DNA from: Alphaproteobacteria bacterium
Lineage (GTDB): Bacteria; Pseudomonadota; Alphaproteobacteria; Rs-D84; CACZYB01
Length of the DNA: 64,000 bases
Direction of reading: 5' to 3'
NCBI GenBank assembly: GCA_016297965.1
Contig: JAEDDP010000001.1
Location: 139,347 to 203,346 of the forward strand
Part shown: positions 50,246-64,000 of the stretch, one piece after another
Numbering within the stretch: the stretch's first letter is position 1
How the letters are laid out: every line of letters starts with the position of its first letter
Translations under genes and position numbers: made by a program
Notes under the pieces: generated by a model
The model's input: the letters and a program-made list of their open reading frames with translations, nothing else
Databases searched by the model: none
What the model was told of the DNA's origin: nothing

Positions 50246-50872
50246 TTAGAATAAACCAGCAAGTGAGTTTGCAATTCTTTGTTTTATTTGTGTGCTTGCT
50301 TCCTCAGGCGTTAGATTTACCCTTTTTGCATTTACGGTAAGCATTGTTGTTTGGGCGTTGTTTTTACCTTCGGTAATCCTTATATCTGTTTGAACATTGT
50401 ATGTGATGTCCTTTGTATTTGCATCAAAATACATTGTTGCAAGTCCCGCAGCAAGTCCGGCACCAATACCTGCCAATCCGTCATTTTTGTTTGCAACGGC
50501 AAGTCCAACTCCGGTTCCGGCAATAACGGCATCATTTTGTGCGTCCATTGCACTTGATCTGTTTATTGAAATTGCCCTTACAACATTTGCTTGGAGGATA
50601 AAGTTTGCATTTGCAGGGTTGGTTGTTATCTGGTATCCCTTGTATTCAAGGGCGCGTGTGATATATCCGTTTAGGTCGTTAAAGTTTTGGTTGTCGGATG
50701 TATTTCTTACCTGTACAAAGATTTTTGTGTTTTCCGGTACGGTTGGGTTTAACCATATTGTTTTATTCATATTGGTTGTGATTTCAAGATCGCTGTTCGC
50801 CATACGGGTATAGGTTCCGGAACATCCAGAAAGTAGGGCGATTGTTGATAAAATAGTTATAAATTTTTTCAT
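50246..50872 (-). CDS. traT: TraT-like surface-exclusion / complement-resistance outer-membrane lipoprotein
   Basis: Lipobox LLSGC; block TIWLNPT...IFVQVRNTSDNQ...KGYQITTNPANANFILQANVVRA closely parallels F-plasmid TraT (TIWLEPA...FLQIKNTSDKD...[23 protein letters not shown]); glycine-zipper segment AGTGVGLAVA...GIGAGLAAGLA. Confidence 0.8.
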   Translation of the reverse strand: MKKFITILSTIALLSGCSGTYTRMANSDLEITTNMNKTIWLNPTVPENTKIFVQVRNTSDNQNFNDLNGYITRALEYKGYQITTNPANANFILQANVVRAISINRSSAMDAQNDAVIAGTGVGLAVANKNDGLAGIGAGLAAGLATMYFDANTKDITYNVQTDIRITEGKNNAQTTMLTVNAKRVNLTPEEASTQIKQRIANSLAGLF

Positions 50873-50962
50873 TTTAGGCTCCTTTGTTTAGGCTTTTTTA
50901 CTTGAACCTATTTTATATTTTTTGCTTTATAAATTCAAGTTTATATTTTATAATTTGGTGTT

Positions 50963-51469
50963 ATGAAAAAGGTTTATATAAAAATAAATGATATTTTGGT
51001 TAAAAATTGCTTAAAGGATATATTTTTGAAAAATTCTTTGGCGGTGGTTGATGATGAAAAAGATGCCGATTTCGTTTTGGGTGAAGATGGTGATGAATTC
51101 GTTGTTAACAACGATTATAAATTCCAAAAGCCATTGAATGTTTTTGATGTCATCAATTTTTTACAATCATTTGTACTTATTTCATTTTGTGGTGCCAGTT
51201 TTGATATAAATAAAAAGATTGTTGTTCGGGATGGGGCGGTTGTGCAACTTACCGATATTGAAACAAAGATTTTGTCCCGTCTTTTGGATGAAAAGGATGG
51301 TGTGGATGTTGAAGATTTGGTTTGTGGTGTGTTTGGTAAAAATACCGAATCAAATGTGAAAACATTGTCCACACATATCTATAATTTGAAAAAAAAGTTG
51401 GCATTGTTATTTAAAAAACAAAAAAATATTATTGTCGTGAATGCTAGGTATAAGCTGGATTTATCGTAA
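50963..51469 (+). CDS. Orphan OmpR/PhoB-type winged-helix DNA-binding protein lacking a recognisable receiver domain
   Basis: C-terminal trans_reg_C-like pattern (LTDIETKILSRLL...VxxLxxxVFG...VKTLSTHIYNLKKKL...RYKL); the N-terminal 80 aa lack the D-D-K receiver signature. Confidence 0.5.
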   Translation: MKKVYIKINDILVKNCLKDIFLKNSLAVVDDEKDADFVLGEDGDEFVVNNDYKFQKPLNVFDVINFLQSFVLISFCGASFDINKKIVVRDGAVVQLTDIETKILSRLLDEKDGVDVEDLVCGVFGKNTESNVKTLSTHIYNLKKKLALLFKKQKNIIVVNARYKLDLS

Positions 51470-51508
51470 TTTTTGATGTAATAGAATAAAAATGTTTGCA
51501 TTTTGTTC

Positions 51509-51537
51509 TTGACATTTTGCAAAAAATAGTGTATAGT
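51509..51537 (+). promoter_or_regulatory. Near-consensus sigma-70 promoter (TTGACA - 17 nt - TATAGT)
   Basis: ttgacattttgcaaaaaatagtgtatagt. Confidence 0.5.
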
Positions 51538-51543
51538 GCATAT

Positions 51544-51610
51544 CAACTAATGGGATAACTGTATCCTGTTTGGTTATTGTCTCTCTTTCATTTCTTGAAA
51601 GAGTTTTTTT
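51544..51610 (+). ncRNA. Candidate ~65-nt sRNA at the edge of the phage-derived island
   Basis: Starts ~7 nt after the promoter above; internal hairpin ggataactgtatcc; ends in intrinsic terminator ctctttcatttcttgaaagag + T7; no ORF. Confidence 0.35.
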
Positions 51611-51628
51611 ATATTAAAAACAGAAAGA

Positions 51629-51922
51629 ATGGAAATAAATATGGAAACAATCAATTTATCCTGGTGGATAAGTGTTGTTGAAATTCCATTATTTGTAGGG
51701 GCATTCTGGCTTCTTAAAAATAATATATCGTCTTTGGATTGTGCAGTGAAGGATGTTGAGGCAAAAACGAAAAAAGACACAATTGATTTAATTGAAAGTC
51801 TTGCGTCTTTTCGTGTGGATGTTGCTATGAATTATGCGTCCATTTCCTGTTTAAAAGATGTGGAAAATCGGCTAACGGCTCATCTGTTAAGGATTGAGGA
51901 AAAAATTTCAGGGGGAAAATAG
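51629..51922 (+). CDS. Membrane-anchored coiled-coil protein (i-spanin-like topology), part of the putative lysis cassette
   Basis: 97 aa; single N-terminal TM followed by a charged helical region; position immediately upstream of the endolysin-like gene. Confidence 0.35.
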   Translation: MEINMETINLSWWISVVEIPLFVGAFWLLKNNISSLDCAVKDVEAKTKKDTIDLIESLASFRVDVAMNYASISCLKDVENRLTAHLLRIEEKISGGK

Positions 51923-51924
51923 TA

Positions 51925-52368
51925 ATGATAGTTGAAAACAGAGAAAAATTTATTAAACAGTTAAAGTTAAGCTCTAATGTTATAAAATTTATTTTTGCAA
52001 AAAGTTTATTTTCATTGGGTGAAATGGTTTCCGAAAAATTACTTTTTGCGGTGGCATCGGTTGTGATGAACCGCTTTGTGTATGAGGCGGAAATTTCGGA
52101 TACCCAACCTGATATTATTAAAATTTTGACTTCAACTTCATTATTTCCTGAATGGAAAAATACAAAATATATGGATGGAATAGATGTTTCATCAAACAGG
52201 TTTAAAAAATGTTTTGGTGTTGGTGTTTTGGCATTGTCCGGAAAATTAAAGGATAGTGCAAGGCAATCTATTGCATTTATGAAAAAAGGAAAAAGTTCAT
52301 TGTGGGCAGATGGGCTTTTGCCATGTTTAGTTATTGATGACTATGCTTTTTATAATAATTGTGCCTAA
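51925..52368 (+). CDS. SleB/CwlJ-family (Hydrolase_2) cell-wall hydrolase, probable phage endolysin
   Basis: AVASVVMNRF...LFPEW resembles the conserved AVxxVVxNRV...FP core of the Hydrolase_2 family used by alphaproteobacterial phages and GTAs. Confidence 0.45.
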   Translation: MIVENREKFIKQLKLSSNVIKFIFAKSLFSLGEMVSEKLLFAVASVVMNRFVYEAEISDTQPDIIKILTSTSLFPEWKNTKYMDGIDVSSNRFKKCFGVGVLALSGKLKDSARQSIAFMKKGKSSLWADGLLPCLVIDDYAFYNNCA

Positions 52369-52385
52369 AAAAATAATATGGAGGT

Positions 52386-52610
52386 TTGTGTATGAATATA
52401 ATTACAGGTGGATTTTTAAGTGGTAAGAAAACTTTGATTACCGCGATTGTAAGCCTTATATCCTGTGTTGCGGCATATCTTGTTGGCGATGTGGGTTTGG
52501 TTGATTTGATTCAGGTTATCGTGCCTTTGTTTGGTGTGATTTTTATGGGACGAGAGATTTCAGAAAATCTTAAATCAGATTTGGAAAAACTTAATTCTAA
52601 AAAAAAATAG
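52386..52610 (+). CDS. Holin-like small membrane protein
   Basis: 74 aa, two TM helices and a charged C-terminal tail, adjacent to the endolysin-like gene. Confidence 0.4.
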   Translation: MCMNIITGGFLSGKKTLITAIVSLISCVAAYLVGDVGLVDLIQVIVPLFGVIFMGREISENLKSDLEKLNSKKK

Positions 52611-52732
52611 GACGGTTTTATTTGTTGGGATTTTTAAGGCTGGTATTTAAAAGACGACATTTCAAATATCTTTTGATACTTGATTTGTTTGATTGGATAA
52701 AAAATAAATTTGTTAAAAAGGGGTAATGTATT

Positions 52733-53326
52733 ATGGATAATCAAAAAGTAAAGGTAAATCTTTTGGGTGAAGAAAATGGTAATGGTACAGATGTTCTTGA
52801 TTTGGCACTTAAAACTAATGGTGCGGAAAAGGAATATAATATCATTCTTCATAACAGATTTTTGACTATTGATAAAGAGGTAAATAAAAGGTTAAGGTCT
52901 GCGGGATTTACCAATGAACAGGCACAACTTGTTTACGATTTGGCAGGTGAAATTATGATACCAAAGATTCAAGAAGTGGTTGAAGAATTTCGTGCATATC
53001 GCGAGCTTGCAAAATTGGAAAATTATTTTGGTGGTGAAGAACGTTTTGATGAAATATCAAGACAGATTTCTATGTGGGCGGAAAAAAATGTTCCACCGGA
53101 AATTTATCAATCTTTGAACTCTTCTTTTTATGGTGTGATTGCATTGTATAATATGATGACTTCCAATGAACCAAAAGTTATGGCAAAGTCTGGGGAAACA
53201 CAGGAAGTTATCACCGAGAAAAAATTGAAAGAGATGATGCAAGATCCAAAATATTGGAGAGATGGTGATAAGGATTTTATTAAAAAAGTTGATGACGGTT
53301 TTAAATTTTTATATGGTGATGAATAA
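52733..53326 (+). CDS. T7 gp9-like capsid scaffolding protein
   Basis: Acidic helical 197-aa protein; C-terminus MMQDPKYWRDGDKDFIKKVDDGF parallels the T7 gp9 C-terminus AMSDPRYRTDANYRRQVEQKVIDSNF; located upstream of the capsid gene. Confidence 0.6.
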   Translation: MDNQKVKVNLLGEENGNGTDVLDLALKTNGAEKEYNIILHNRFLTIDKEVNKRLRSAGFTNEQAQLVYDLAGEIMIPKIQEVVEEFRAYRELAKLENYFGGEERFDEISRQISMWAEKNVPPEIYQSLNSSFYGVIALYNMMTSNEPKVMAKSGETQEVITEKKLKEMMQDPKYWRDGDKDFIKKVDDGFKFLYGDE

Positions 53327-53437
53327 AATTTTTATTAAAAAAAATTGAAAAAATTTTATTTTTTTATATTTTGCTGTTGCAGTATTGCTTTTTGTGTGGT
53401 ATATTGTATCTGTCTTTTGTTTAATAAGGAGAGAGAT

Positions 53438-53902
53438 ATGTTTAAAAGTATAATTAAAAGAGCTTCTAAACCAACCGCAAAAAAGGTTGCCGTAAAATCA
53501 GAAGAAAAAAAAGTTGTTGCTAAAAAAACAACAGTTGCAAAAAAGCCAGTAGCTAAAAAAGTTGCAGTTAAAAAAACAGCAGTTGCAAAGAAACCAGTTG
53601 CTAAAAAAGTAACAGTTAAAAAAGCGACAGTTGCAAAGAAACCAGTTGCTAAAAAAGTTGCAGTTAAAAAAACAACAGTTGCAAAGAAACCAGTTGCTAA
53701 AAAAGTGACAGTTAAAAAGGCAACAGTTGCAAAGAAACCAGTTGCTAAAAAAGTAACAGTTAAGAAAGCAACAGTTGCAAAGAAACCAGTTGCTAAAAAA
53801 GTAACAGTTAAAAAAATCGTTGTAAAGAAAGCTTCTGTTAAGGTTGCATCAGTTAAAAAAGCTGTGAAACCTGTTGCAAAAAAAAAAGTAGCAAAGAAGT
53901 AG
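53438..53902 (+). CDS. Histone H1 / Hc1-like lysine-rich repeat protein
   Basis: SD aaggagag before ATG; about six tandem 16-aa repeats KKPVAKKV(T/A)VKK(A/T)TVA encoded by 48-bp DNA repeats. Confidence 0.65.
   Translation: MFKSIIKRASKPTAKKVAVKSEEKKVVAKKTTVAKKPVAKKVAVKKTAVAKKPVAKKVTVKKATVAKKPVAKKVAVKKTTVAKKPVAKKVTVKKATVAKKPVAKKVTVKKATVAKKPVAKKVTVKKIVVKKASVKVASVKKAVKPVAKKKVAKK
53515..53830 (+). repeat. 48-bp tandem coding repeats (about 6 copies) inside the H1-like gene
   Basis: gttgcaaagaaaccagttgctaaaaaagt(a/g)acagttaaaaaagc(g/a)aca recurring with a 48-bp period. Confidence 0.8.
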
Positions 53903-53910
53903 AAGTTTCT

Positions 53911-54471
53911 TTGGTAGTTTCTAATCCTAACAAGGATAAGAAAGAGGTTGGTGAAAATAAGAAAACATCCTTTTTCGGTTCTTTGTTAGGATTTTTTTAT
54001 AATCATACAAAGGGAATTATAAAAACAATTTTAATACTTTCAGTATTGGTTGCATTTACAACTTCGTTTATGAAAGAATTAGAAGTGTATGCGGATATGC
54101 GTTTTGCAATGAATCCTATTGAAATTATTTTTATTGGTTTTGTTGATGCTGTTTTTAATCTTGTAAAATACTTTATACCTTTCCTTTTTGTATGCTTGAT
54201 TATTAAATTTATTATGATTAAATCTAGGAAGTTAAAGGTTGAATACATATTTAACAGACAATTTAAAATGCAAATCTTGATTGCCTTTTTGCTTTCGTTT
54301 GCATTTGCAGTTTTGTTTTATACTGATGTGTTGGCGATTGCCACATATTCACCACAACTTGTGAAATCATCGGTTGATATTTTTATGTTGTCATTCTTTT
54401 CAATACTTTTGACATTTACATCTTTGTTTGGTTTGTTGGATGGTGTTGATACCGTGATTTCAAAGAAATAG
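53911..54471 (+). CDS. Hypothetical polytopic membrane protein (moron between scaffold and capsid genes)
   Basis: 186 aa, 4 predicted TM helices. Confidence 0.45.
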   Translation: MVVSNPNKDKKEVGENKKTSFFGSLLGFFYNHTKGIIKTILILSVLVAFTTSFMKELEVYADMRFAMNPIEIIFIGFVDAVFNLVKYFIPFLFVCLIIKFIMIKSRKLKVEYIFNRQFKMQILIAFLLSFAFAVLFYTDVLAIATYSPQLVKSSVDIFMLSFFSILLTFTSLFGLLDGVDTVISKK

Positions 54472-54583
54472 TTAAGTTCTGGATTAAATTATACTTTTGT
54501 CCGTCCCTTTTTGGGGCGGATTTTTTTTATGGGCGAAGTTAAATTTGCCCTTTTCGTTTAATTAAAATATAGGAGATTTATAT

Positions 54584-55414
54584 ATGTCAGTTTCTATTGA
54601 TAAAGTGTTTATAAAACAATTTGAAGCGGATGTTCATCTTGCTTTTCAACAAATGGGAACAAAACTTCGTTCCACAGTTAGAACAAAAAATGATGTGAAG
54701 GGAAGTTCAACTACATTCCAAAAAATTGGAAAGGGTATTGCCAGTGTGAAGGCAAGACATGGACTTGTTCCTGTTATGAATTTGGATCATACACCGGTTG
54801 AATGTGTATTGACAGATTATTATGCGGGTGATTGGGTTGATGAACTTGATGAATTAAAAACAAATGTTGATGAACGTCGTGTTGTTGCATCTGCCGGTGC
54901 GTATGCCCTTGGTCGCAAAAGTGATGAACTTATCATTGCAGAATTAAACAAGGCAACAAATTCAGTTCAGACATCATCAGCGGGTCTTACAAAATTAAAG
55001 ATTTTTGAGGCATTGGAATTTTTGAATGCAAATGATGTGCCAGATGATGGTCAAAGATTTGGTGTTGTTGGTGTTCATCAATGGAACGAACTTTTAAGTA
55101 TGGATGAATTTTCAAAGGCAAGTTATGTCGGCGATACCTATCCTTTACTTAAAGGTACAGAATCAAGAAAATGGATGGGCGTAAATTGGATTTTGCATAA
55201 TTCACTTCCATGCAGTGAAGGTGAAAGAAGTTGTTTCATTTATCATAAAAATGCGATTGGTCATGCATCTGGATGTGAAGTTAAAACAGATATTTCATGG
55301 CATGGTGAAAGGGCAGCTCACTTTATTTCAAATTGTATGAGTCAAGGAGCAACGCTTATTGATAATCAAGGAATTGTGAAAATTATGTGTGATGATGACG
55401 CGGTTATTGCCTAA
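54584..55414 (+). CDS. T7 gp10-like major capsid protein (short form)
   Basis: Pattern VFIKQFEADVHLAF...RSTVR...F......DELKTNVDERRVVASAGAYALGRKSDELIIAELN parallels T7 gp10A LFLKVFGGEVLTAF...RHMVR...DAMNHYDVRSEYTSQLGESLAMAADGAVLAEIA; follows the scaffold gene and precedes the gp11/gp12 homologs. Confidence 0.6.
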   Translation: MSVSIDKVFIKQFEADVHLAFQQMGTKLRSTVRTKNDVKGSSTTFQKIGKGIASVKARHGLVPVMNLDHTPVECVLTDYYAGDWVDELDELKTNVDERRVVASAGAYALGRKSDELIIAELNKATNSVQTSSAGLTKLKIFEALEFLNANDVPDDGQRFGVVGVHQWNELLSMDEFSKASYVGDTYPLLKGTESRKWMGVNWILHNSLPCSEGERSCFIYHKNAIGHASGCEVKTDISWHGERAAHFISNCMSQGATLIDNQGIVKIMCDDDAVIA

Positions 55415-55449
55415 AATAAAACAAAAATAAAAAAAGGAGAAAAAATATT

Positions 55450-55710
55450 ATGAGTATGAATTCAAAAAATTTGTCGGTTCTTGCCTATTCAAACGGTTTT
55501 ACATTTTGGCATTATAAAACAGAAGATGCAAAGGATGCGGTTGTTGCGGCGAATTATTTTAATGATGTTGCAAATATTTTTAATGTTGGTGATTTGATTG
55601 TGGCATCAATGGATATTGCAGGTACAATGACAACCGGAATGTTTGCGGTTACTTCAATTGCTTCTGGTGTTGTTTCAATTTCAAGTATTATTCCATCTGC
55701 AAGTGTGTAA
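55450..55710 (+). CDS. Small hypothetical virion-module protein
   Basis: 86-aa ORF with RBS between the capsid and gp11-like genes. Confidence 0.35.
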   Translation: MSMNSKNLSVLAYSNGFTFWHYKTEDAKDAVVAANYFNDVANIFNVGDLIVASMDIAGTMTTGMFAVTSIASGVVSISSIIPSASV

Positions 55711-55753
55711 ATAAAATAAATATCTTTTAATTTCAAGGTTCCATTTTTTTTGG

Positions 55754-56338
55754 GTGGAACCTTTTTTTAATGAGGAGAAAGAGATGAGTTTTTCAAGTAT
55801 AGATTTGTGTTCAAAGGCACTGAATAAAATTGGTGCGAATTCTATTGTTTCATTTGATGAGGGAACACCGGAGGCGGAAATATGTGGAAGTTTGTATTCT
55901 ACATTAAAGTATAAATTGCTTTCAATTTTTTCATGGGGGTTTGCAACATCAATTAAAAAACTTAATCAAGTTGTTGAAGAAGAGCAAAATGAGTATGGTT
56001 ATACATTTGCTTTGCCAAGTGATTTTATAAGGGCTTTGAAAATATCCTCAAATTCTCCTTATAAAATTTTGGGAAATTATTTATATTGTAATGATGAAGA
56101 GGTGGTATTGACCTATATTGCAAATGTTGGTGAGGAATATTTTTCACCACTTTTTGTATCGGCCTTTATTTATTTGATGGCGGCGGAATTGTCTGTATCA
56201 CTTCTTAACGATACATCAAAATATTCGTTGTTTTACAAATTGTTTAATTCGGAAATACGACAGGCAAAATCAATAGACAGTCAACAGGAAACACCAAAGG
56301 TTTTGGGCGATTTTCCGTTGATTTCAGCGAGAGGTTAG
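55754..56338 (+). CDS. T7 gp11-like tail tubular protein A
   Basis: ~190 aa (T7 gp11 is 196 aa); SIDLCSKALNKIGANSIVSFDEG...LLSIFSWGFA parallels T7 gp11 [20 protein letters not shown]...IQSRGWTF. Confidence 0.6.
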   Translation: MEPFFNEEKEMSFSSIDLCSKALNKIGANSIVSFDEGTPEAEICGSLYSTLKYKLLSIFSWGFATSIKKLNQVVEEEQNEYGYTFALPSDFIRALKISSNSPYKILGNYLYCNDEEVVLTYIANVGEEYFSPLFVSAFIYLMAAELSVSLLNDTSKYSLFYKLFNSEIRQAKSIDSQQETPKVLGDFPLISARG

Positions 56339-56348
56339 GTAGGTAATT

Positions 56349-58250
56349 ATGAAGCAAACTATGAGTATAAGTACTTTTAATTATGGTGAAATTTCATCTG
56401 GGCTTTTTGGTCGGGGAAATTTTGATGCATATAAAAGTGCGGCAATGAAGCTTATGAATATGGATGTTATTCCGACAGGTGGTATTGAACGACGGGATGG
56501 ACTTAGGTATGTTGATACCCTTTCATCAAGGGGAAAAATTGTTTCGTTTGAATATTCTTCGGATAAGGAGTTGATATTATTTTTTGGAAATAATGTTATT
56601 GATATTTATGAAGATGATGTGAAGGTTAAAAGCCTTGTTTCCCCATACAAAGTTGATGATTTGAAAAATATTTGTTGGTGTCAAAAGGCAAACCAGCTTT
56701 TTATCGTGCATCCGGATATTGAACCGCAAATTATAAAATATGATGCGTTGATGGATGAATGGAGTATTTTTCCGTGGGTGTATGCGACAAATGAAAAATT
56801 TGGATATTCTTGTCAACCGTTTAACAGGTTTGATGATACCGTTGGTATTTCAATTACTCCATCGGCAAAGACCGGAGAAATAACACTTAAATCCAGTGCA
56901 AAACTTTTTACCGCAAATTATGTTGGGGTAAGGTTGAATTTGGATGGTGGTGAGGTGCTTATAACCTCAATTGTATCGGATGTAAGTGCAAAGGCGACGG
57001 TAAAGTCAAATTTGACGGCTGTTACGGCGGATGCAAACTGGCAAGAACAGACTTTTTCCGCATTTCGTGGTTATCCAAAAAGTATTGCATTCCATCAAAA
57101 CAGATTGGTTATTGGTGGTTCAAAAAGTCTTCACAACAGATTGTGGCTTTCGTGTACGGGAAAGCTTTTGAATTTTGATTTGGGGACTGGGCTTGACGAT
57201 GAAGCAATAGAGTTTGATATTTTTTCGGATAAGGTTAATGAAATTGTTGGGGTATTTTCGGGACGACATTTACAGGTGTTTACATCGGATGCGGAATGGA
57301 TGGTGTCCGGTGTGCCACTTACTCCGTCAAATATTTCCGTTTCACAACAAACAAAAATTGGGTCCGTTTCGGACAGGTATATTCCACCAAAGTTGGTTGA
57401 AGGTTCAACAATATTTGTTGCAAGAAACAAGCGGGAAATTCGTGAATTTTTCTATGGTGATTTAACGGAAAATTATTCGTCGGAAGATTTGATTTTGCTT
57501 TCAAATCATCTTTTATGTTCGCCAATAGAACAAGATTACAGTATTAAAAAAAGGACGCTTTATGTTGTGCAAAATGATGGAACACTTGCTGTTTTGATTA
57601 TAAACAAGACCAACGGAATAAATGCATGGGTGCAATATCAAACGGACGGAAAATTTATTTCTGTTGCCGTGTTGGTTGATAAAGTTTATGCGATTGTTGA
57701 ACGAGATGGTACCTACTTTTTGGAAATTTTTGATGGGGATGTTTCATCGGATTGTTCATCAAAATATTGTTTTGAAAATGAGGTGGAAGAAATTGAAAAT
57801 CTTTCACGATTTAATGGAAAAGAGGTCGTTGTAAATGCGGATGGCTTTATTTATGAAATGGTTGTATCGGATGGTAAAATCAATTTGCCGAAACCTTCAA
57901 AAAATGTTGTTGTTGGTTTGTCCTTTACTCATTTGTATTGTCCTTTACCTGTGTTTATCAATTCAAGTTATTTGCCAAAGGCGGTACGATTATTAGAGTT
58001 GAACCTTCGGGTGATGGAAACTCCTCTTTTACAGGTGGATACCGGTGGCGGACTTAAAAACATAACGTTTTTGAATTTTGACAGTGGGAACAAGTTTGAT
58101 GAAAGTCTTCCTTGTTTTACCGGTGATTTAAAAATTCGTGGGTATGGATTTATACGAAATTATACAATACCACTTTTTAAAATACAGGGATGTAAACCGT
58201 ATAAATTAAAAATTTTGAATGTGTCAATGTTAATTGATGTAATAAGATGA
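56349..58250 (+). CDS. T7 gp12-like tail tubular protein B
   Basis: 633 aa; block AFHQNRLVIGGSKSLHNRLWLSCTGKLLNFD parallels T7 gp12 FFFRNRLGFLSGENIILSRTAKYFNFYP; N-terminal ISxxNxGEISxG pattern similar to gp12 SIKNLKGGISQQ. Confidence 0.6.
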   Translation: MKQTMSISTFNYGEISSGLFGRGNFDAYKSAAMKLMNMDVIPTGGIERRDGLRYVDTLSSRGKIVSFEYSSDKELILFFGNNVIDIYEDDVKVKSLVSPYKVDDLKNICWCQKANQLFIVHPDIEPQIIKYDALMDEWSIFPWVYATNEKFGYSCQPFNRFDDTVGISITPSAKTGEITLKSSAKLFTANYVGVRLNLDGGEVLITSIVSDVSAKATVKSNLTAVTADANWQEQTFSAFRGYPKSIAFHQNRLVIGGSKSLHNRLWLSCTGKLLNFDLGTGLDDEAIEFDIFSDKVNEIVGVFSGRHLQVFTSDAEWMVSGVPLTPSNISVSQQTKIGSVSDRYIPPKLVEGSTIFVARNKREIREFFYGDLTENYSSEDLILLSNHLLCSPIEQDYSIKKRTLYVVQNDGTLAVLIINKTNGINAWVQYQTDGKFISVAVLVDKVYAIVERDGTYFLEIFDGDVSSDCSSKYCFENEVEEIENLSRFNGKEVVVNADGFIYEMVVSDGKINLPKPSKNVVVGLSFTHLYCPLPVFINSSYLPKAVRLLELNLRVMETPLLQVDTGGGLKNITFLNFDSGNKFDESLPCFTGDLKIRGYGFIRNYTIPLFKIQGCKPYKLKILNVSMLIDVIR

Positions 58251-58263
58251 AAGGATTAAAAAA

Positions 58264-58683
58264 ATGGGTACAAGTGTGGCTGTGGCAAGTGTTATTGCCA
58301 AAACAGCATTGGATTACAAAGATGCAAAAGATGAAAAAAAACAACTTAAAAAAGAAAAAGAGTTGAAAGAAGCGGAAATAAAAAAGAAAAAGGAAATTTA
58401 CGAGCAGGAAAAAACAGACCTTTTGAAGGCAAAAATTGCATCAAAAAAGGCAAGTCTTGCCGCAAATGGACTTGGGACTACGGATGCTTCGTCGGCGGTG
58501 TTATTGGGAAGTATGGAAAAGGAGACCGATGAAGATATTGCAAACAATGAATATTTTTCGGATTTAAATCTTTCGGCAAATGAAATGAATTATAATTACA
58601 AGAAAAATAAAAACTTGCTTGCACGGCGAAAGATGGGACTTAATGCCATAAATTCCGCATCGGATGGGCTTAAATTGTTATAA
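58264..58683 (+). CDS. Small K/E-rich coiled-coil protein in the gp13 (internal virion protein A) position
   Basis: 139 aa (T7 gp13 is 138 aa); assignment by position and size only. Confidence 0.3.
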   Translation: MGTSVAVASVIAKTALDYKDAKDEKKQLKKEKELKEAEIKKKKEIYEQEKTDLLKAKIASKKASLAANGLGTTDASSAVLLGSMEKETDEDIANNEYFSDLNLSANEMNYNYKKNKNLLARRKMGLNAINSASDGLKLL

Positions 58684-58686
58684 AAA

Positions 58687-59286
58687 ATGAGCAGGAAATT
58701 AAGTTTTGAGAAATTTTTGATAAATTGGAATAAGGTTCAGGAGGTCAAAACTCCGGAACATCATTTGCGTATTGCAAGGTGGCTTGAAAATATTTATTCA
58801 TCCGAGACAAGGCGCGGGCTTTTGATGGCATTCCGTAGTAGTGGTAAATCAACAATTGTTGGAGTGTTTTGTGCGTGGCTTTTGTATAAAAATCCGAATA
58901 CGCGAATTTTGGTTGTGGCGGCGGATACTGTGTTGGCACGAAAGATGGTTAGGAATGTAAAGCGGATTATTGAAACGAATCCCTTGCTTTGTGATATTTG
59001 TCCGAAAAAGAAGACAGAGTGGGCGTCGGGAAGTTTTACCGTTGTTCGGGATAAGGAGCTTCGTGATCCGTCAATGCTTGCCGTTGGATTGATGTCAAAT
59101 GCCACGGGAAGCAGGGCGGATGTGATTATTTGCGACGATGTTGAGGTGCCAAAAAATTGTGATACATACCAAAAAAGAATCGATTTGAGGGAGAAATTGT
59201 TGGAATTTAACTTCATTTTGGTGCCGGATGGGATGCAAATTTTTATCGGAACTCCGCATACTTTGGATACTATTTACAAAGTTTAA
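58687..59286 (+). pseudogene. Truncated terminase large subunit (ATPase domain only, nuclease domain missing)
   Basis: Walker A SSGKST, Walker B ADVIICDDVE, coupling motif FIGTPHTLDTIY; 199 aa whereas intact TerL is ~450-600 aa; ORF ends just before the CU-rich hairpin elements and tRNA-Phe. Confidence 0.65.
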
Positions 59287-59370
59287 AGAAAAAAGTTGGG
59301 AATGAAGTGTTTGATTTTATGGGGAAAATATTCTTTGTTTGTACAAATAAAAATTTTTCACAAAAATATA

Positions 59371-59398
59371 TTGACAAATGAAATGAAATTTGTATAAT
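59371..59398 (+). promoter_or_regulatory. Consensus sigma-70 promoter (TTGACA - 16 nt - TATAAT) with A/T-rich upstream element
   Basis: ttgacaaatgaaatgaaatttgtataat. Confidence 0.5.
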
Positions 59399-59404
59399 GA
59401 AGTC

Positions 59405-59533
59405 AATTCGTTAATACGAAAAAGAAATTTGCCGAGACGACCCCTCATTTCGGCAAATCTGGTCAAAGGCCAGCAACCCCCTAAGTCATTCCCTCCTTAT
59501 TTTCTCTCTCTCCTCGACTTAGGGGATTTTTTT
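59405..59533 (+). ncRNA. Candidate ~130-nt sRNA with a CU-rich (anti-Shine-Dalgarno-like) terminator loop
   Basis: 5' hairpin ttgccgaga...ttcggcaa; terminal 10-bp stem cccctaagtc/gacttagggg enclosing loop attccctccttattttctctctctcctc; T8 run. Confidence 0.4.
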
Positions 59534-59839
59534 TATTTGTAAAATAAGTTTAAAAAAATGAATTTTTTGTTTGCTATTTTGTTTTTAAATTGGTAAAAAT
59601 ATTTTCGTTGTTTGAAAACATCAGAATCGATTCCTTTTTTAATGTAAAAGAATCGGTTTTTTGGTGGTTTTTTAATGGTGTTTTATGCTTGACAATCGTA
59701 TCTTTACAAAAGATTCTTTGAAAATGCAACTGTTTGAATTTACAGATGAATTTATATTTGTCTTTGTTAAATAAAGTTGCCAAAAAAATAAACACTTGAC
59801 TTTTTTTGTCAATGGTATTAAGAATCTTCGCATAAAGCA

Positions 59840-59943
59840 AATTTAATAGTTATGTTCTTTTAAGTTTGTTTGAAAGTTATTCCCTGTTGCGTTCCTTTTC
59901 TCTCCTTTCCTCCTTCTCTCCTCGCAACGGGGAATTTTTTTTA
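59840..59943 (+). ncRNA. Second CU-rich-loop hairpin element homologous to 59477-59533 (sRNA or terminator module)
   Basis: stem tccctgttgcg/cgcaacgggga enclosing loop ttccttttctctcctttcctccttctctcct; T8 run; weak upstream promoter-like TTGACT at 59796. Confidence 0.35.
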
Positions 59944-60000
59944 TCAAAAGTGTTAAAAAGTGCAAAAAAAATCCCCACATAAAGTGAGGATGAATTTTTA

Positions 60001-60076
60001 TGGTGGCGAGGGGCAGAATCGAACTGCCGACACAAGGATTTTCAGTCCTTTGCTCTACCAACTGAGCTACCTTGCC
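60001..60076 (-). tRNA. tRNA-Phe (anticodon GAA), CCA encoded
   Basis: minus-strand read ggcaaggtagctcagttggtagagcaaaggactgaaaatccttgtgtcggcagttcgattctgcccctcgccacca: cloverleaf with D-arm gctc/gagc, anticodon loop ctGAAaa, T-arm ggcag-ttcgatt-ctgcc, 3' CCA. Confidence 0.9.
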
Positions 60077-60207
60077 ACAAGATGTGTAAATTTATAACCT
60101 ATATTTTCACAAAACGCAACAAAAAAGTTTACTTTTTGTAATAATAGCTTGTTTTGATGACAAAATTATGGTATTATTGTACATATAGTTTTAGGAGAAA
60201 TTGGGAT

Positions 60208-62064
60208 ATGAGAAAAGTTTTTGTTTCGGTGTTGGTGCTTTCCGCTTTTGTGGCGAATATGGATTGTTATGGTGCAAGGAAAAGAAAATCATCCAAAAAT
60301 GCCAGAACGGCAAGCATTCGTGAACGTTCTGTAAAAAGGATGGTTTCGTCAACGGCGTCTTCGTATTCATTGGCAACATCATCGTACAGTTCTTCACTTC
60401 TTGAAAACCTTTCCCGATTTCAAAGTTCCGTTTTTGGTGAAAAGTTGATGTATGGAAAGTCGTATGCTCTTCAAGATATGTTTACGATTGCGACACATTC
60501 CTATTATTACAAAAATGGGTCGCAGGCGGAATTAAAGGAACAATTTTGTTTCGGTCCATATATGAAACTTACCGGTGTTGGGGCAAGCAGTTCCGCAACA
60601 TCTTCGGTGGTGGAAGCAAACGGTTCGTTGCAATGTGTTGATTTGGAAAAGGATACAATTTATTCTCTTTCATTATTGGATGCGACCGATGGGCAAATTG
60701 AAAATGCACTTCATACGTCTTCGGTGTCCGGTGTGGTAAGTGGAGACCAAAGGGTTGCCTATGTTTCGCGGTCCGGAAATCCGATTGCAACACAATATTT
60801 TAATTCCGAAAAATATATTGATGTAAGTGAGTATGCAAAGAAAATTAACGAAGCGGTTGCAATGGCGAAGTCTTCGTGTGGTTCATTTAAAAGTGATATG
60901 GATAAGTTGAAAAGTCAACTTGGGTTTGGGGTTGCACTTTCATCCGGAATTGGTGTGGCATTGTCGGGGGCAAGTACCGGTGTTGGTATTTACAATATAA
61001 AAAAGACAAATGAAGTTCAATCCACAATTAAGAAACAAGAAAATATGCAAAAGAACCTTGAAGAAATTGCAAGGTCAAGTGATACCGGTTATCAGGAGGT
61101 GAAGGATAAAAATTCAGGAAAGTTTGATGTAAGTCAAAAGGCAGAGAAAGAGATTATTGCAGATAAAAGAACTTATAAAACAAAGAATGAAATATCGAAA
61201 ATTACGGATTTAAGAAGTTTGAATGCAACTTTGGTGAATAAAGAGAGTTGTGAACATATTGAAAGTTTTAAAGAGTATTGTGATAAATTGAATAATAAAT
61301 GTAAAGATTTGCCTTCCAGTGAGAATGTTAACGATTATTTGAAAGGAATGCAAGCCTATTCCGGTGGTGATGAATATTATGAAGGATGTTTTTCTGGTTC
61401 TGATGAAAACTTAACATTTGTAGATAGTATTTATTATGAATTGAAGGATGGGGAAAAAACTGATAAAGAATGTACAGGTTCTGATAAAAGTAAGTGTACA
61501 GAAGAACCTAAAAAAAATTGTGTTGAGTTAAAGAATGATTTTAATGCTTTTGAAAACTTAACATTTGTAGATAGTATTTATTATGAATTGAAGGATGGGG
61601 AAAAAACTGATAAAGAATGTACAGGTTCTGATAAAAGTAAGTGTACAGAAGAACCTAAAAAAAATTGTGTTGAGTTAAAGAATGATTTTAATGCTTTGTC
61701 GGAAGATGCAAAAAGAAGATGGATTTTCCAAAAGGATTATAATACTTATTCAGATTTAAAGAAACAATGTGATGTTGCGAATGGTAAGGTGGATACGGTT
61801 AATAAGTCAAGCGAACAATACAAAAAGTATGTTGACAGTGTTGATTCATCAATGAAGACATCCCGTAATTTGGATATTGTACAGGCAGGATTAAGTGGTG
61901 CGTCCACAATTGCCAGTGGTGTTTCTCTTGGGTTTTCCGTTTCCGCAATTGGTACGGTTGGTGATGCGATTGATGAACTTTCAAAATGTAATGCTGCCAT
62001 TTCAAAGTTAAGAAATGTTTATGGTGAATACAAGGCGGAATTAGAGGCGGATGAGGAGGAATAA
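60208..62064 (+). CDS. Secreted/surface protein with RS-rich post-signal motif and an exact 49-aa internal duplication
   Basis: SD taggagaaa; signal peptide then GARKRKSSKNARTASIRERS; Ser-rich tract; C-terminal Gly/Ala/Ser-rich ASGVSLGFSVSAIG domain shared with the next gene. Confidence 0.65.
   Translation: MRKVFVSVLVLSAFVANMDCYGARKRKSSKNARTASIRERSVKRMVSSTASSYSLATSSYSSSLLENLSRFQSSVFGEKLMYGKSYALQDMFTIATHSYYYKNGSQAELKEQFCFGPYMKLTGVGASSSATSSVVEANGSLQCVDLEKDTIYSLSLLDATDGQIENALHTSSVSGVVSGDQRVAYVSRSGNPIATQYFNSEKYIDVSEYAKKINEAVAMAKSSCGSFKSDMDKLKSQLGFGVALSSGIGVALSGASTGVGIYNIKKTNEVQSTIKKQENMQKNLEEIARSSDTGYQEVKDKNSGKFDVSQKAEKEIIADKRTYKTKNEISKITDLRSLNATLVNKESCEHIESFKEYCDKLNNKCKDLPSSENVNDYLKGMQAYSGGDEYYEGCFSGSDENLTFVDSIYYELKDGEKTDKECTGSDKSKCTEEPKKNCVELKNDFNAFENLTFVDSIYYELKDGEKTDKECTGSDKSKCTEEPKKNCVELKNDFNALSEDAKRRWIFQKDYNTYSDLKKQCDVANGKVDTVNKSSEQYKKYVDSVDSSMKTSRNLDIVQAGLSGASTIASGVSLGFSVSAIGTVGDAIDELSKCNAAISKLRNVYGEYKAELEADEEE
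61405..61698 (+). repeat. Perfect 2 x 147-bp in-frame tandem duplication inside the 60208-62064 gene
   Basis: gaaaacttaacatttgtagatagtatttattatgaattgaaggatgggg...aatgattttaatgcttt present twice consecutively (61405-61551, 61552-61698). Confidence 0.85.
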
Positions 62065-62065
62065 A

Positions 62066-62749
62066 ATGAAACAAGTAAGTAAAATATTGTTGTGTTTGGC
62101 GGTGTCGGTTTATTCCTTTGATACAATGGCGAAGTTGTCATCAAATTCCGTTAAAAATCAGGTTGTGAATATTGAGTATGCACTTTCAAAGTGTAATTTC
62201 AGTGCGAACGTGCTTAACGAAATTAAAAGTAAGACCGTGGGCGGGGCTGTTTCGTCAGGCGTTGCGACCATTGGTTCCGGTGTGGCAACGACAACCTCTA
62301 TTATCGCGGCGGTGAAAAGTTCAAAGTATGAGTATGAGTCAACGAATAGAGACAATTCCGCTGGGACAACAAATACTACCAATACGACCACTACCGAGAA
62401 TGAAGGTGAAAATCAGAATGAAGGTGAAAATCAGAATGAAGGTGAAAATCAGAATGAAGGTGGAAAAAAGAACGGAGGTGGAAAAAAGAACGGAGGAAAA
62501 GGAAACACGACAAATAATACAAGTAGATATGATACCTCAACAGAAGACAGGCGTGATGGTGTGAAAAAACTTAATTCTTCGTTGAAAAATTTGCGGGTGG
62601 CGTCGGCGATTGCGTCGGGTGTGGCAACCGGTGCGAACCTTGTGACCGTGACATTAAGTGGGACTTCGGTTTCGCAACTTGGGAAATTGATGGATGATGC
62701 CGATGATTGTGAAGGCGCACTTAATTCAATTATTATTTCGGAAAAATAA
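62066..62749 (+). CDS. Secreted/surface protein with hexapeptide (EGENQN) repeats and a C-terminal domain shared with the upstream gene
   Basis: SD gaggagga; signal peptide; Gly/Ala/Ser-rich AVSSGVATIGSGVATT and AIASGVATGANLVTVTLSG segments; 18-bp repeats. Confidence 0.65.
   Translation: MKQVSKILLCLAVSVYSFDTMAKLSSNSVKNQVVNIEYALSKCNFSANVLNEIKSKTVGGAVSSGVATIGSGVATTTSIIAAVKSSKYEYESTNRDNSAGTTNTTNTTTTENEGENQNEGENQNEGENQNEGGKKNGGGKKNGGKGNTTNNTSRYDTSTEDRRDGVKKLNSSLKNLRVASAIASGVATGANLVTVTLSGTSVSQLGKLMDDADDCEGALNSIIISEK
62402..62497 (+). repeat. 18-bp tandem repeats (3 perfect + 2-3 diverged copies) encoding EGENQN / GGKKNG
   Basis: gaaggtgaaaatcagaat x3 then ggtggaaaaaagaacgga x2. Confidence 0.85.
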
Positions 62750-62956
62750 AAAACGAATCTTTGTTTAAATAATAATAAAAATCCGGTTTGAAAGTCAATT
62801 TCAATGCCGGTTTTTATTTTGTGCTTGGTTTGTTTTCCTATATTCATAAAAATAATTGGAAAAATTTGTATTTTTAGTTTTTATCTTCTTAACTTTTACC
62901 TTTTTTTATGGTATCATTAAGGAATGAAGTCAAATAAGGAAGTAAGGGGAGAAAAA

Positions 62957-64000
62957 ATGATTGATGGAAATTTCGGATATAAATCAGGTGATGACGATAT
63001 TCAAAATTTTATTCCAAAAATTACGGTTATGGGTGTTGGCGGTGCAGGTTGTAATGCCGTTAATAATATGATTGCCCAAGGAATTGATGGTGTTGATTTT
63101 ATTGTGGCAAATACCGATGCGCAATCCTTACTTCAATCAAAGGCACCAAAAAAAATTCAACTTGGTAAACAAACAACAAAGGGATTTGGTGCGGGTTCCC
63201 GACCAGAGGTGGGACAAAAGGCCGCCGAGGAATCATCCAGTGAAATTACAGATGCGATAAAAAATGCAAACATTTTGTTTTTGACCGCCGGAATGGGTGG
63301 TGGAACCGGAAGTGGTGCGATGCCGGTTATTGCCGAACTTGCCCGTGAAAAGGGTATTTTGACCGTTGCAATTATTACTACTCCATTTGAATTTGAAGGA
63401 AAGAAAAAAGAAAAAATTGCACGTGAGGCATTGGAAAGATTGGTTCCAAATGTGGACTCCTATATCGTTCTTCCAAACCAAAATCTTTACCGTGTTGTTG
63501 ATAAACAAATGACCTTTTTGAATGCGTTTAAGGTGTCCGATAATGTCCTTTATGAAGGGGTAAGAAATATTACTGATTTGATACGGATACCGGGGACAAT
63601 CAACCTTGATTTTGCGGATATTCGTGCGGTTATGGAAAACAGTGGTCGTACGATTATTGGTACTTCTATTCAATCCGGTGTTGATAGGGCGATAAAGGCG
63701 GTTGATGGAGTCCTTATGAACCCAATGCTTCAAGGAAATGATGTGCGTGGGGCAAGGTCGGTCCTTGTAAACATTACGGCAAATCCGGAAAACCTTTCGT
63801 TGGATGAACCGGAAACTATTATGAATAATATTCGTTCTTCTATTGATAGTGATGAAACAAATTTTTATTTGGGAACTTGTTTTGATGTGTCAATGGGGGA
63901 TGATTTAAAGGTGGCGATTATTGCGACCGGACTTAATGAGGCGAGTGCCGGTTCGTTTATTCCATCGGCACATAAATATACTTCATCTTCGTTTACAGGC
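62957..64000 (+). CDS. ftsZ: Cell division GTPase FtsZ (3'-truncated by window end)
   Basis: GVGGAGCNAVNNM, tubulin signature GGGTGSG, T7 loop NLDFADIR; ORF runs off the window; no ftsA upstream. Confidence 0.9.
   Translation, partial: MIDGNFGYKSGDDDIQNFIPKITVMGVGGAGCNAVNNMIAQGIDGVDFIVANTDAQSLLQSKAPKKIQLGKQTTKGFGAGSRPEVGQKAAEESSSEITDAIKNANILFLTAGMGGGTGSGAMPVIAELAREKGILTVAIITTPFEFEGKKKEKIAREALERLVPNVDSYIVLPNQNLYRVVDKQMTFLNAFKVSDNVLYEGVRNITDLIRIPGTINLDFADIRAVMENSGRTIIGTSIQSGVDRAIKAVDGVLMNPMLQGNDVRGARSVLVNITANPENLSLDEPETIMNNIRSSIDSDETNFYLGTCFDVSMGDDLKVAIIATGLNEASAGSFIPSAHKYTSSSFTG

Follow-up and report, generated by a model that had tools for sequence, protein, structure and literature searches.

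Three families of gene transfer agent (GTA), namely the RcGTA-like agents, BaGTA and VSH-1, are listed in a review oriented to the International Committee on Taxonomy of Viruses, and none of them is podovirus-derived. Among podoviruses, the HTVC010P-type pelagiphages include temperate members that integrate at tRNA genes (PMC8477408). The present work concerns a set of podovirus-derived particle and lysis genes found in a 64,000-nucleotide stretch of an alphaproteobacterial chromosome of ~35% GC (GenBank contig JAEDDP010000001.1, positions 139,347 to 203,346; hereafter the window). We consider the set very probably to be a vertically inherited, selected, particle-forming element. The fuller reading, an old, chromosomally fixed, vertically inherited and selected set that is GTA-like, is our preferred explanation and is held with somewhat less confidence; that it is a GTA in the strict sense, a step made by analogy, has an even chance at best. 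The observations behind these readings are the gene identities, the split of the set, its distribution, its housekeeping flanks, purifying selection, co-divergence with the host and compositional amelioration.

The window region is most likely one half of the gene set. The other half was read from contigs of the same species, which match the window at 98-99% in intergenic DNA and 99-100% in protein and reach ~5 kb beyond its end. Together the two halves encode a procapsid (portal, scaffold and capsid), a tail hub, a terminase, and a lysis cassette of a hydrolase and small membrane proteins. Judged by this gene content, which includes neither replication, integration or lysogeny modules nor ejection proteins, the set would not propagate itself. 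Every open reading frame (ORF) between 51.6 and 59.3 kb of the window lies on the plus strand, and the phage-gene identities came from hidden Markov model profiles with E values of 3e-7 to 5e-113:

51629..51922, plus strand: p97, small protein with an N-terminal membrane helix (judged by eye); phrog_29007, E = 3e-18
51925..52368, plus strand: divergent SleB-like cell-wall hydrolase; its own PF07486 match is weak, E = 0.01
52386..52610, plus strand: p74, small membrane protein by its translation; conserved in L016 and in IMG/VR relatives
52733..53326, plus strand: capsid scaffolding protein, T7 gp9 family; PF05396, E = 3e-7, 31.4 bits against a gathering cut-off of 27.1
53345..53902, plus strand: HC2/histone-H1-like Lys-rich repeat protein; PF07382, E = 3e-10; 15/33/48-nt repeats
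53911..54471, plus strand: polytopic membrane protein of 186 aa, a lineage-specific insertion followed by two terminator-like hairpins (54499-54550)
54584..55414, plus strand: major capsid protein, HK97 fold; PF19821, E = 9e-72; phrog_3437, E = 2e-72
55450..55710, plus strand: p86, small conserved protein, always 3' of the capsid gene; phrog_18004, E = 1e-12
55735-55763: terminator-like hairpin after p86
55754..56338, plus strand: tail adaptor/gatekeeper, gp11-like (tail tubular A); phrog_394, E = 2e-42
56349..58250, plus strand: tail nozzle, gp12-like (tail tubular B); phrog_376, E = 5e-113
58264..58683, plus strand: p139, coiled-coil protein, assigned to the T7 gp13 position by position only
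58687..59286, plus strand: TerL-N, a free-standing ORF of 199 aa; NF033889 positions 1-189 of 500, E = 4e-77

The profile matches are far better than chance. They confirm, together with the host genes on the flanks (thrS, class-A penicillin-binding protein, tolB, pyruvate kinase, rpsA, rpoD and a MATE pump in the window, with a MacAB-TolC system immediately 5' of the phage-gene region), that genuine podovirus-derived genes with a T7-type structural module reside in a chromosome, as a model-generated initial annotation had proposed. Family profiles also matched solved structures: a phage major capsid protein for the capsid (4e-39), podovirus 'Connector protein' (2.5e-16) and 'Adaptor protein' chains for the adaptor, and a 'Tail Nozzle' for the nozzle (1e-86). 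The scaffold is homologous to a 264-aa protein encoded 5' of the capsid gene in Pelagibacter phage EXVC031P 'Hodr'. p86 is present in nearly all loci examined and is a candidate head accessory or decoration protein; the 81-aa Hodr protein at its position is homologous to the p86 orthologues of L018, L101 and L055 (L numbers designate loci and contigs). The capsid-p86 unit is bracketed by the terminator-like hairpins at 54499-54550 and 55735-55763, and this placement suggests an excess of capsid transcript. For p139 there was no family match and no BLAST similarity to T7 gp13. Weak p139 orthologues occur in L018, L019, L032 and L060, and a small-residue N-terminus is common to p139 and the same-position proteins of relatives and of phage Hodr.

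The lysis genes are conserved beyond the window. p97 lies beside the hydrolase gene here, and relatives whose terminase is unsplit have it immediately 3' of that gene, usually with the hydrolase adjoining; by tblastn it was found next to the terminase in most of ~80 loci, and it is probably part of the lysis cassette. At the position corresponding to that of the hydrolase, 11 ORFs of related genomes match PF07486 (best E = 1.5e-22), and phage Hodr encodes a homologue; the protein is a candidate endolysin. p74 may be holin-like, to judge from position and hydrophobicity. The initial annotation took the lysis cassette, an HC2-like protein and a membrane protein for insertions into the phage block (TraT, the HC2/H1-like repeat protein and the membrane protein are all present in the region). 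The cassette is instead ancestral, since Hodr also carries the hydrolase and a three-transmembrane (3-TM) holin, and the other two do appear to be lineage-specific insertions. The HC2-like protein, whose gene separates scaffold from capsid, is 122 to 185 aa long depending on the strain and is confined to three species, namely that of the window, L101 and L018. The membrane protein is 51-57% identical to its orthologues in L101 and L018 (dN/dS 0.19-0.38). A protein of DNA-condensing (HC2/H1-like) type within a capsid gene set is a curiosity in its own right.

The capsid of Hodr is 47% identical to that of the window, and the capsids of HTVC010P-type pelagiphages reach ~31%; for the portal and the nozzle, identities to these two groups are 33-34% and 26-28%. 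The scaffold, post-capsid protein, fibre N-terminal domain, hydrolase and 3-TM holin of these phages are homologous as well, and the genes from scaffold to nozzle keep one local order (scaffold-capsid-small protein-adaptor-nozzle). The phages differ in having complete genomes of ~34-35 kb with replication genes and an unsplit terminase; Hodr also has large internal virion proteins of 783 and 1247 aa, with none in the chromosomal sets. T7 gp19 is 33% identical to the window terminase (BLAST, E = 1e-23; model NF033889), within the 33-38% range seen with terminases of T7-like phages, and T7 gp8 was detected in the same-species contigs (BLAST, 22%, E = 4e-8). T7 gp9 to gp13 gave no direct BLAST match in the window, their likeness being at profile level only. 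For the proposed T7-order block, gene order and profile-level homology are present, and BLAST detects gp19 and gp8 only. T7 shares the portal family, gp9-family scaffold and gp11/gp12-like tail hub, in T7 order, and its T-phi terminator after gene 10 resembles the terminator-like hairpin after the capsid unit here. T7 and the Autographiviridae have a single-subunit RNA polymerase, a DNA polymerase, a primase-helicase and gp14-gp17, whereas the gene set is without them. On this comparison 'T7-type structural module' seems fair and the 'Autographiviridae' of the initial annotation does not: there is no phage RNA polymerase, and capsid, nozzle and portal are nearest to pelagiphages of HTVC010P type and their relatives at 26-47% identity.

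The same-species contigs continue after ftsZ with four further genes, which in window-equivalent coordinates would fall at ~64.8-68.2 kb and are followed by an Xre-type helix-turn-helix (HTH) gene and then mipZ:

L011, 15870-17384: T7-type portal, 504 aa; PF12236; phrog_332, E = 2e-106; ~0.8 kb past the window end
L011, 17377-18249: TerL-C, 290 aa; its start overlaps the portal stop
L011, 18328-18993: membrane-anchored protein, 221 aa
L011, 19068-19334: Bbp19-family protein, 88 aa

The portal had been counted as missing, and the terminase as truncated after its ATPase domain and dead; the portal and the remainder of the terminase lie instead just past the window end, the latter being TerL-C directly after the portal. 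In the window clade the set is broken up around host genes, in this order:

first half: lysis genes, scaffold, capsid, adaptor, nozzle, TerL-N
remainder: small-RNA-like gene, tRNA-Phe, two hypervariable ORFs (X and Y), ftsZ, portal, TerL-C, Bbp19

TerL-N and TerL-C cover consecutive stretches of one terminase profile (phrog_38 positions 271-458 and 468-714, respectively), showing that the terminase is split into two genes ~7 kb apart. A database search with TerL-N gave 364 relatives, and nearly all of the best 120 are ~200 aa long, at identities down to 52%. They share one end point (...TPHTxDTIYKV) and show no variation in the Walker A (GKS), Walker B (DDVEVP) and TPH motifs. TerL-C retains the acidic nuclease motifs WDPS, ExNG and DDGLD, as do unsplit relatives. 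Both parts are intact in six lineages, separated by different DNA: 237 bp in L016; tRNA-Phe, ftsZ and portal in the window species, L101 and L018; and in L099 and L100 an opposite-strand segment of 3.3 kb that includes dnaB and an HTH gene:

L099:10604-13889 and L100:10603-13915, minus strand: the replicative-helicase-family gene dnaB, an HTH protein of 335 aa, and a ~215-aa ORF

Approximately 35 IMG/VR 'viral' contigs of ~10 kb (L102-L136) have a gap of the same size (~3.3 kb) between the terminase parts and, on the basis of that size, probably enclose the dnaB segment. Outside the window clade the terminase is a single ORF of ~490 aa. An intein, intron or recoding event was considered as the cause of the split and discarded: TerL-N carries nothing extra after model position 189, the two parts are separated by 0.2-7 kb of DNA, with opposite-strand genes there in some lineages, and the TerL-C start overlaps the portal stop. 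With no intein-sized extension and cis splicing impossible, the parts, if active, act as two polypeptides. If it works, the window clade would possess a natural two-polypeptide large terminase.

Two hairpin elements had been noted between the terminase and the tRNA gene, and both are present in 59287-60000:

59371..59534, plus strand: candidate small RNA; perfect sigma-70 promoter at 59371-59398, then ~130 nt of structured RNA
59834..59942, plus strand: second, weaker copy of the hairpin design; covariance-model match E = 0.002; direct repeat family D11

The candidate RNA folds into three hairpins (z = -5.3), including a terminator hairpin with a 28-nt CU-rich loop that is invariant across species and anti-Shine-Dalgarno-like. 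It is 81-85% identical among species with saturated coding dS, with compensatory changes in two stem pairs, and neither it nor the hairpin elements matched an Rfam family. Counterparts of the second copy occur in L018 and L101. The 237-bp terminase gap of L016 holds a promoter, a CU-rich-loop hairpin and a T-run of the same design (L016:10650-10790), with a weak covariance-model score (E = 0.26). Because a similarly built RNA element fills the L016 gap, insertion of such a small-RNA gene is suggested as the event that split the terminase.

The distribution of the set was established by a one-genome-per-species scan, which returned at least 294 confirmed relatives, the best 80 of which were examined. 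Far from being uncommon, as first supposed, the gene set is carried by 80 or more species-level genomes of Rhodospirillales-grade Alphaproteobacteria and probably by several hundred. Carriers include Azospirillum, Paramagnetospirillum, Magnetospirillum, Thalassospira, Terasakiella, Telmatospirillum, Micavibrio and Ferruginivarius, 'Rickettsiales' metagenome-assembled genomes, and gut Alphaproteobacteria such as Candidatus Scatocola. Every locus long enough to judge carries the same gene set, which in the relatives runs as follows:

first part: portal, Bbp19, scaffold, capsid, p86, adaptor, nozzle, gp13-position protein
second part: tailspike of ~675 aa (pectate-lyase-like domain), terminase, p97, Hydrolase_2, 3-TM 'GTA holin'

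A database search with the capsid of Azospirillum sp. A26 gave 6652 relatives at E <= 1e-20, and capsids are 73-93% identical across Azospirillaceae genera, Telmatospirillum and Varunaivibrio. These loci are listed as viral contigs in IMG/VR, PGAP names the capsid 'phage capsid protein', and a 5-kb fragment of a relative, from human faeces, was deposited as 'Bacteriophage sp.'. Proteins identical to those of the window were found on many human-gut metagenome contigs, Hadza samples among them.

Vertical inheritance, co-divergence with the host and GC amelioration are supported by several correlative lines of evidence, short of a full reconciliation. A neighbour-joining tree of the nozzle separates Azospirillum, Micavibrio, Thalassospira, the Magnetospirillum group, the gut clade and the split-terminase clade, and so appears to follow host taxonomy. 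Flanking genes are conserved within clades over up to 8-10 kb. In 15 genomes from several families the pyrD gene is found no more than 10 kb from the set, and its pairwise identity (0.40-0.97) correlates with that of the capsid (Spearman 0.91, n = 55 pairs), the nozzle (0.73) and the terminase (0.69-0.74), the pairs being non-independent. The GC content of the set tracks that of its flanks from 28% to 72% (r = 0.98) and is on average 2.7 points higher. The RpoD of the window groups with uncultured Alphaproteobacteria, with the nearest species at 82-85% identity and Magnetovibrio, Telmatospirillum and Terasakiella at 50-66%; its divergence from these neighbours resembles that of the gene set.

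The structural and packaging genes are under purifying selection comparable to that on FtsZ and MipZ. Values of dN/dS from strain pairs of the window species (dS ~0.07-0.13) were:

TerL-N 0; TerL-C 0.02-0.04; capsid 0-0.03
portal 0.03-0.04; adaptor 0-0.02; nozzle 0.03-0.05
host genes: FtsZ 0.045; MipZ 0.04; TraT 0.03-0.06

TerL-N had zero non-synonymous changes in comparisons with dS = 0.11-0.13. Between species, at 75-81% identity in TerL-N, core-gene dN/dS was 0.07-0.26. X and Y are the only fast-evolving ORFs. The core ORFs are intact in at least six divergent lineages and in the ~13 strains examined, bar one contig (L003/L012). That contig, from one sample of the same species, has shortened membrane protein and adaptor ORFs (145 and 175 aa) and an X split in two, which could be an assembly error or true decay in that strain.

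The initial annotation saw at the 3' edge of the region the 3' end of a tRNA-Phe gene into which a prophage had integrated. The gene is in fact complete and lies within the gene set:

60001..60076, minus strand: tRNA-Phe(GAA), complete host gene

No second copy of its 3' end (28 and 20 nt, up to 3 mismatches) occurs in the whole window, and 48-64 kb contains no suitable direct repeats. Lacking such a repeat, the tRNA-Phe gene is best regarded as a neighbour caught inside the set and not as an integration scar. In the window species, L101, L018 and L016, tRNA-Phe and then ftsZ stand between terminase and portal, and the FtsZ proteins of these four lineages are only 41-73% identical. With ftsZ, tRNA-Phe or dnaB inside it, the element cannot excise as a unit. 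Among 259 flanking ORFs scanned, the families matched were housekeeping or ordinary host ones (among them pyrD (8), prfB, PBP1A, thrS, infC, EAL, isocitrate dehydrogenase and GcrA) with one insertion-sequence-type rve_3 domain, and no phage integrase or replication family was among the 25 most frequent Pfam families listed per flank.

Further searches covered the window, the same-species contigs and ~145 related loci with ~10 kb on each side. T7 gp1, gp4 and gp5 had no tblastn match and T7 gp17 no homologue in any of these, and no homologue of T7 gp14, gp15 or gp16 or of the Hodr internal proteins was found in the ~145 loci. Tail fibre, internal core, RNA polymerase, DNA polymerase and integrase homologues are indeed missing from the window and same-species contigs, as originally described. 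The conserved fibre N-terminal domain is absent from the window and present in 55-64 related loci, and L018, L016 and L100 keep this anchor only as a 180-240-aa stub; the tail fibre has been lost in the window species. The same genes thus recur in conserved chromosomal context across distant relatives with no phage neighbours, a situation at odds with an integrated prophage remnant, while selection, distribution and host flanks bear out the domestication that the initial annotation had offered as a possibility. An 'intact prophage' of Varunaivibrio proved to be a different element.

Five explanations were weighed against these data. A neutral, decaying cryptic prophage with a dead terminase, which was the initial view, would account for the absence of replication, integrase, fibre and core genes, for the short terminase ORF, and for a module interrupted by host and lineage-specific genes. 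It is barely credible given intact core ORFs at dN/dS of 0-0.05, the level of ftsZ and mipZ, and a portal and TerL-C that are present and conserved, with a split point identical at 52% identity. A family of HTVC010P/T7-type temperate prophages, repeatedly integrating, inducible or recently defective and losing the same modules each time, would fit the existence of tRNA-integrating HTVC010P-type phages (PMC8477408), the circularly permuted gene orders between clades, the IMG/VR listing and the 'Bacteriophage sp.' faecal fragment. This too is improbable, if less so: the examined flanks show no phage integrase, replication or att feature, the essential ftsZ and dnaB lie inside the set, neighbours are kept across families with pyrD co-divergence, GC is fully ameliorated from 28% to 72%, and the nearest true phage is only 26-47% identical. 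Capsid and packaging genes unaccompanied by fibres (in this species), small terminase or replication genes might alternatively mark a helper-dependent satellite, of the kind of a capsid-forming phage-inducible chromosomal island, that borrows these functions from a helper. There is neither integrase, primase/replication gene nor att, and a vertically inherited set with ftsZ, tRNA-Phe or dnaB inside it is not excisable as a unit; we give this reading very little weight.

More serious, if still unlikely, is a particle kept for a purpose other than transfer, either a killer of PBSX/tailocin type or a capsid repurposed for interaction with the host or neighbours. The fibre is lost in the window species, close relatives keep only an anchor stub, and ejection proteins are absent from all loci; the fibre loss makes a non-transfer role a serious rival for this lineage in particular. 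Head-only RcGTA-like sets under purifying selection are reported from endosymbionts (PMC9254644), and a repurposed capsid has been proposed for such sets. An S24 LexA/CI-like repressor adjoins the set in 10 loci, suggesting SOS-type induction as in pyocins and PBSX, and only its HTH part is retained in L099 and L100:

L020:8030-8650, minus strand: S24 repressor, divergent, ~1.3 kb 5' of the set; several clades
L020:9145-9558, plus strand: conserved ~135-aa ORF just 5' of the set; 13 loci, no homologue in the window clade

The repressor hints at SOS-type control of the set in some lineages. Against a non-transfer role, the terminase parts are among the most constrained genes, which argues for selection on DNA packaging as such. 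Since PBSX packages DNA too, this constraint separates the killer and GTA readings poorly.

Several points count against the preferred reading of a vertically inherited, GTA-like set. The term GTA is an analogy for an element known here from its genes. With neither fibre nor ejection proteins, DNA delivery by the window species is doubtful, and a killer or repurposed particle could be what it makes. The S24 repressor is a prophage-like trait, and the flank view ends ~10 kb from each locus. Clades differ in gene order as circular permutations, which could reflect independent integrations of related phages or, equally well, rearrangement. The pyrD correlations draw on non-independent pairs. No active split terminase is known to us. 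The set contains no recognisable small terminase; the ~135-aa ORF was considered for this role and set aside, having no homologue in the window clade.

Should the vertically inherited, GTA-like reading be correct, the set would be expressed in a fraction of cells, and capsids would assemble on the portal. TerL-N and TerL-C would then package chromosomal DNA by a headful mechanism, without sequence specificity, and cell lysis would free small podovirus-like particles constituting a GTA-like 'viriform'. Particle formation, random packaging and transfer are each proposed here by analogy. Having no ejection proteins, the particles may leave DNA import to the recipient or have a different use. What has been retained is the capacity to build a DNA-filled particle and to lyse the cell, and what has been lost is the capacity to replicate, integrate and inject, which is the GTA pattern.

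Other features of the window adjoin or interrupt the set:

50963..51469, plus strand: winged HTH (wHTH) protein, 168 aa; OmpR/PhoB-type DNA-binding domain only; PF00486, E = 9e-6
51509..51537, plus strand: sigma-70-like promoter 5' of the first gene of the set; 11 of 12 consensus positions, a consensus match only
60154..62749, plus strand: X (636 aa) and Y (232 aa), secreted and hypervariable, between tRNA-Phe and ftsZ; signal peptides and internal repeats
60154-62064 and 62051-62749, plus strand: X and Y singly; Ser/Gly/Ala-rich
62924..64000, plus strand: ftsZ, first 359 of 584 codons, running off the window; 99.4% identical to L011 FtsZ

The wHTH protein is found at the same place in the sister species L101, is fast-evolving (39% identity) and is absent from L018. 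It is a candidate lineage-specific regulator just 5' of the gene set, and its membership in the element is uncertain. X and Y matched no Pfam or PHROG family. In one of them 147 nt are perfectly duplicated in tandem (61404-61697), and the other contains 18-nt repeats (62379-62496). Between strains that agree at 99-100% in their remaining genes, X and Y are 83-89% identical and have dN/dS of 0.42-0.45. They look like hypervariable surface proteins; judged by their sequences, they are probably not particle components. Both were considered as tail fibres and rejected: hhalign gave a probability below 1% when they were compared with the conserved N-terminal domain of the fibre, neither matches PHROG or Pfam, and they have signal peptides and low-complexity repeats. 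The ftsZ gene here does not adjoin ftsQ/ftsA, sitting after tRNA-Phe and X/Y and directly 5' of the portal (L011:14031-20535). mipZ follows ~2.3 kb 3' of the portal, so that cell-division and particle genes are interleaved in the window clade.

A broader interpretation is possible, which we advance tentatively and at somewhat under even confidence: a fourth alphaproteobacterial GTA family of podovirus (HTVC010P/T7-type) ancestry, ancestral to many Rhodospirillales-grade lineages, with a two-polypeptide terminase in one host-associated clade. It would span Azospirillum, Magnetospirillum, Thalassospira, Micavibrio and gut RF32-like bacteria, and insertion of a small-RNA gene would have separated terminase genes that now lie kilobases apart with ftsZ or dnaB between them. 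If true, a podovirus-type case would be added to the three recognised families, and phage domestication would become experimentally tractable in cultivable carriers (Azospirillum, Magnetospirillum, Thalassospira and Micavibrio). Annotation would change for loci now called proviruses in IMG/VR or 'phage capsid protein' by PGAP. The split offers a natural experiment on whether the ATPase core of a large terminase and its lid-plus-nuclease part can function as separate polypeptides. Ejection proteins are consistently lost, which hints at what is altered when a host takes over a phage for its own use.

Searches of open-access papers brought up no account of this element. The ~10-kb GTA-like particles of Azospirillum lipoferum and B510 are attributed in the genome paper to RcGTA-like genes. 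Boyer in 2008 reportedly described them as siphovirus-like, and they are not counted as evidence for the present element. A closer parallel in some respects is FpGTA of Faecalibacterium prausnitzii (PMC12946183), likewise gut-bacterial, encoded in two loci and with particles inferred to be podovirus-like; it differs in its Firmicute host and in having experimental packaging data, where the present element is known from genes alone. BaGTA of Bartonella and PBSX of Bacillus subtilis share with our preferred reading the domesticated phage-like particle that packages host DNA, and they differ in their structural gene families. BaGTA is restricted to one alphaproteobacterial genus, and no Bartonella sequence was among the best relatives listed here (80 loci and 120 proteins). 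PBSX is SOS-induced, has a contractile tail and acts as a killer particle.

The fullest correspondence is with RcGTA (Rhodogtaviriformidae), also a chromosomal, phage-derived head, tail and packaging set without replication or integration genes. Both are vertically inherited, under purifying selection, flanked and interrupted by host genes, provided with a lysis cassette, and slightly higher in GC than their host flanks. A PF11351 '3-TM GTA holin' beside the cell-wall hydrolase in relatives of the present element is shared by name. RcGTA particles leave DNA import to the recipient, and the loss of ejection proteins here would fit such an arrangement. The RcGTA set, however, is of HK97-type siphovirus origin with a prohead protease and a long tail, whereas the module described here is podovirus-type: T7-type portal, gp11/gp12-like hub, T7-type terminase and PF19821 capsid, in Rhodospirillales-grade hosts. 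In an NCBIfam scan of ten of its proteins, only the T7-type terminase model matched. Its capsid (PF19821), portal (PF12236) and terminase (NF033889) families thus argue that the element is not RcGTA-, BaGTA- or VSH-1-like, the distinction from BaGTA and VSH-1 being drawn from these families alone.

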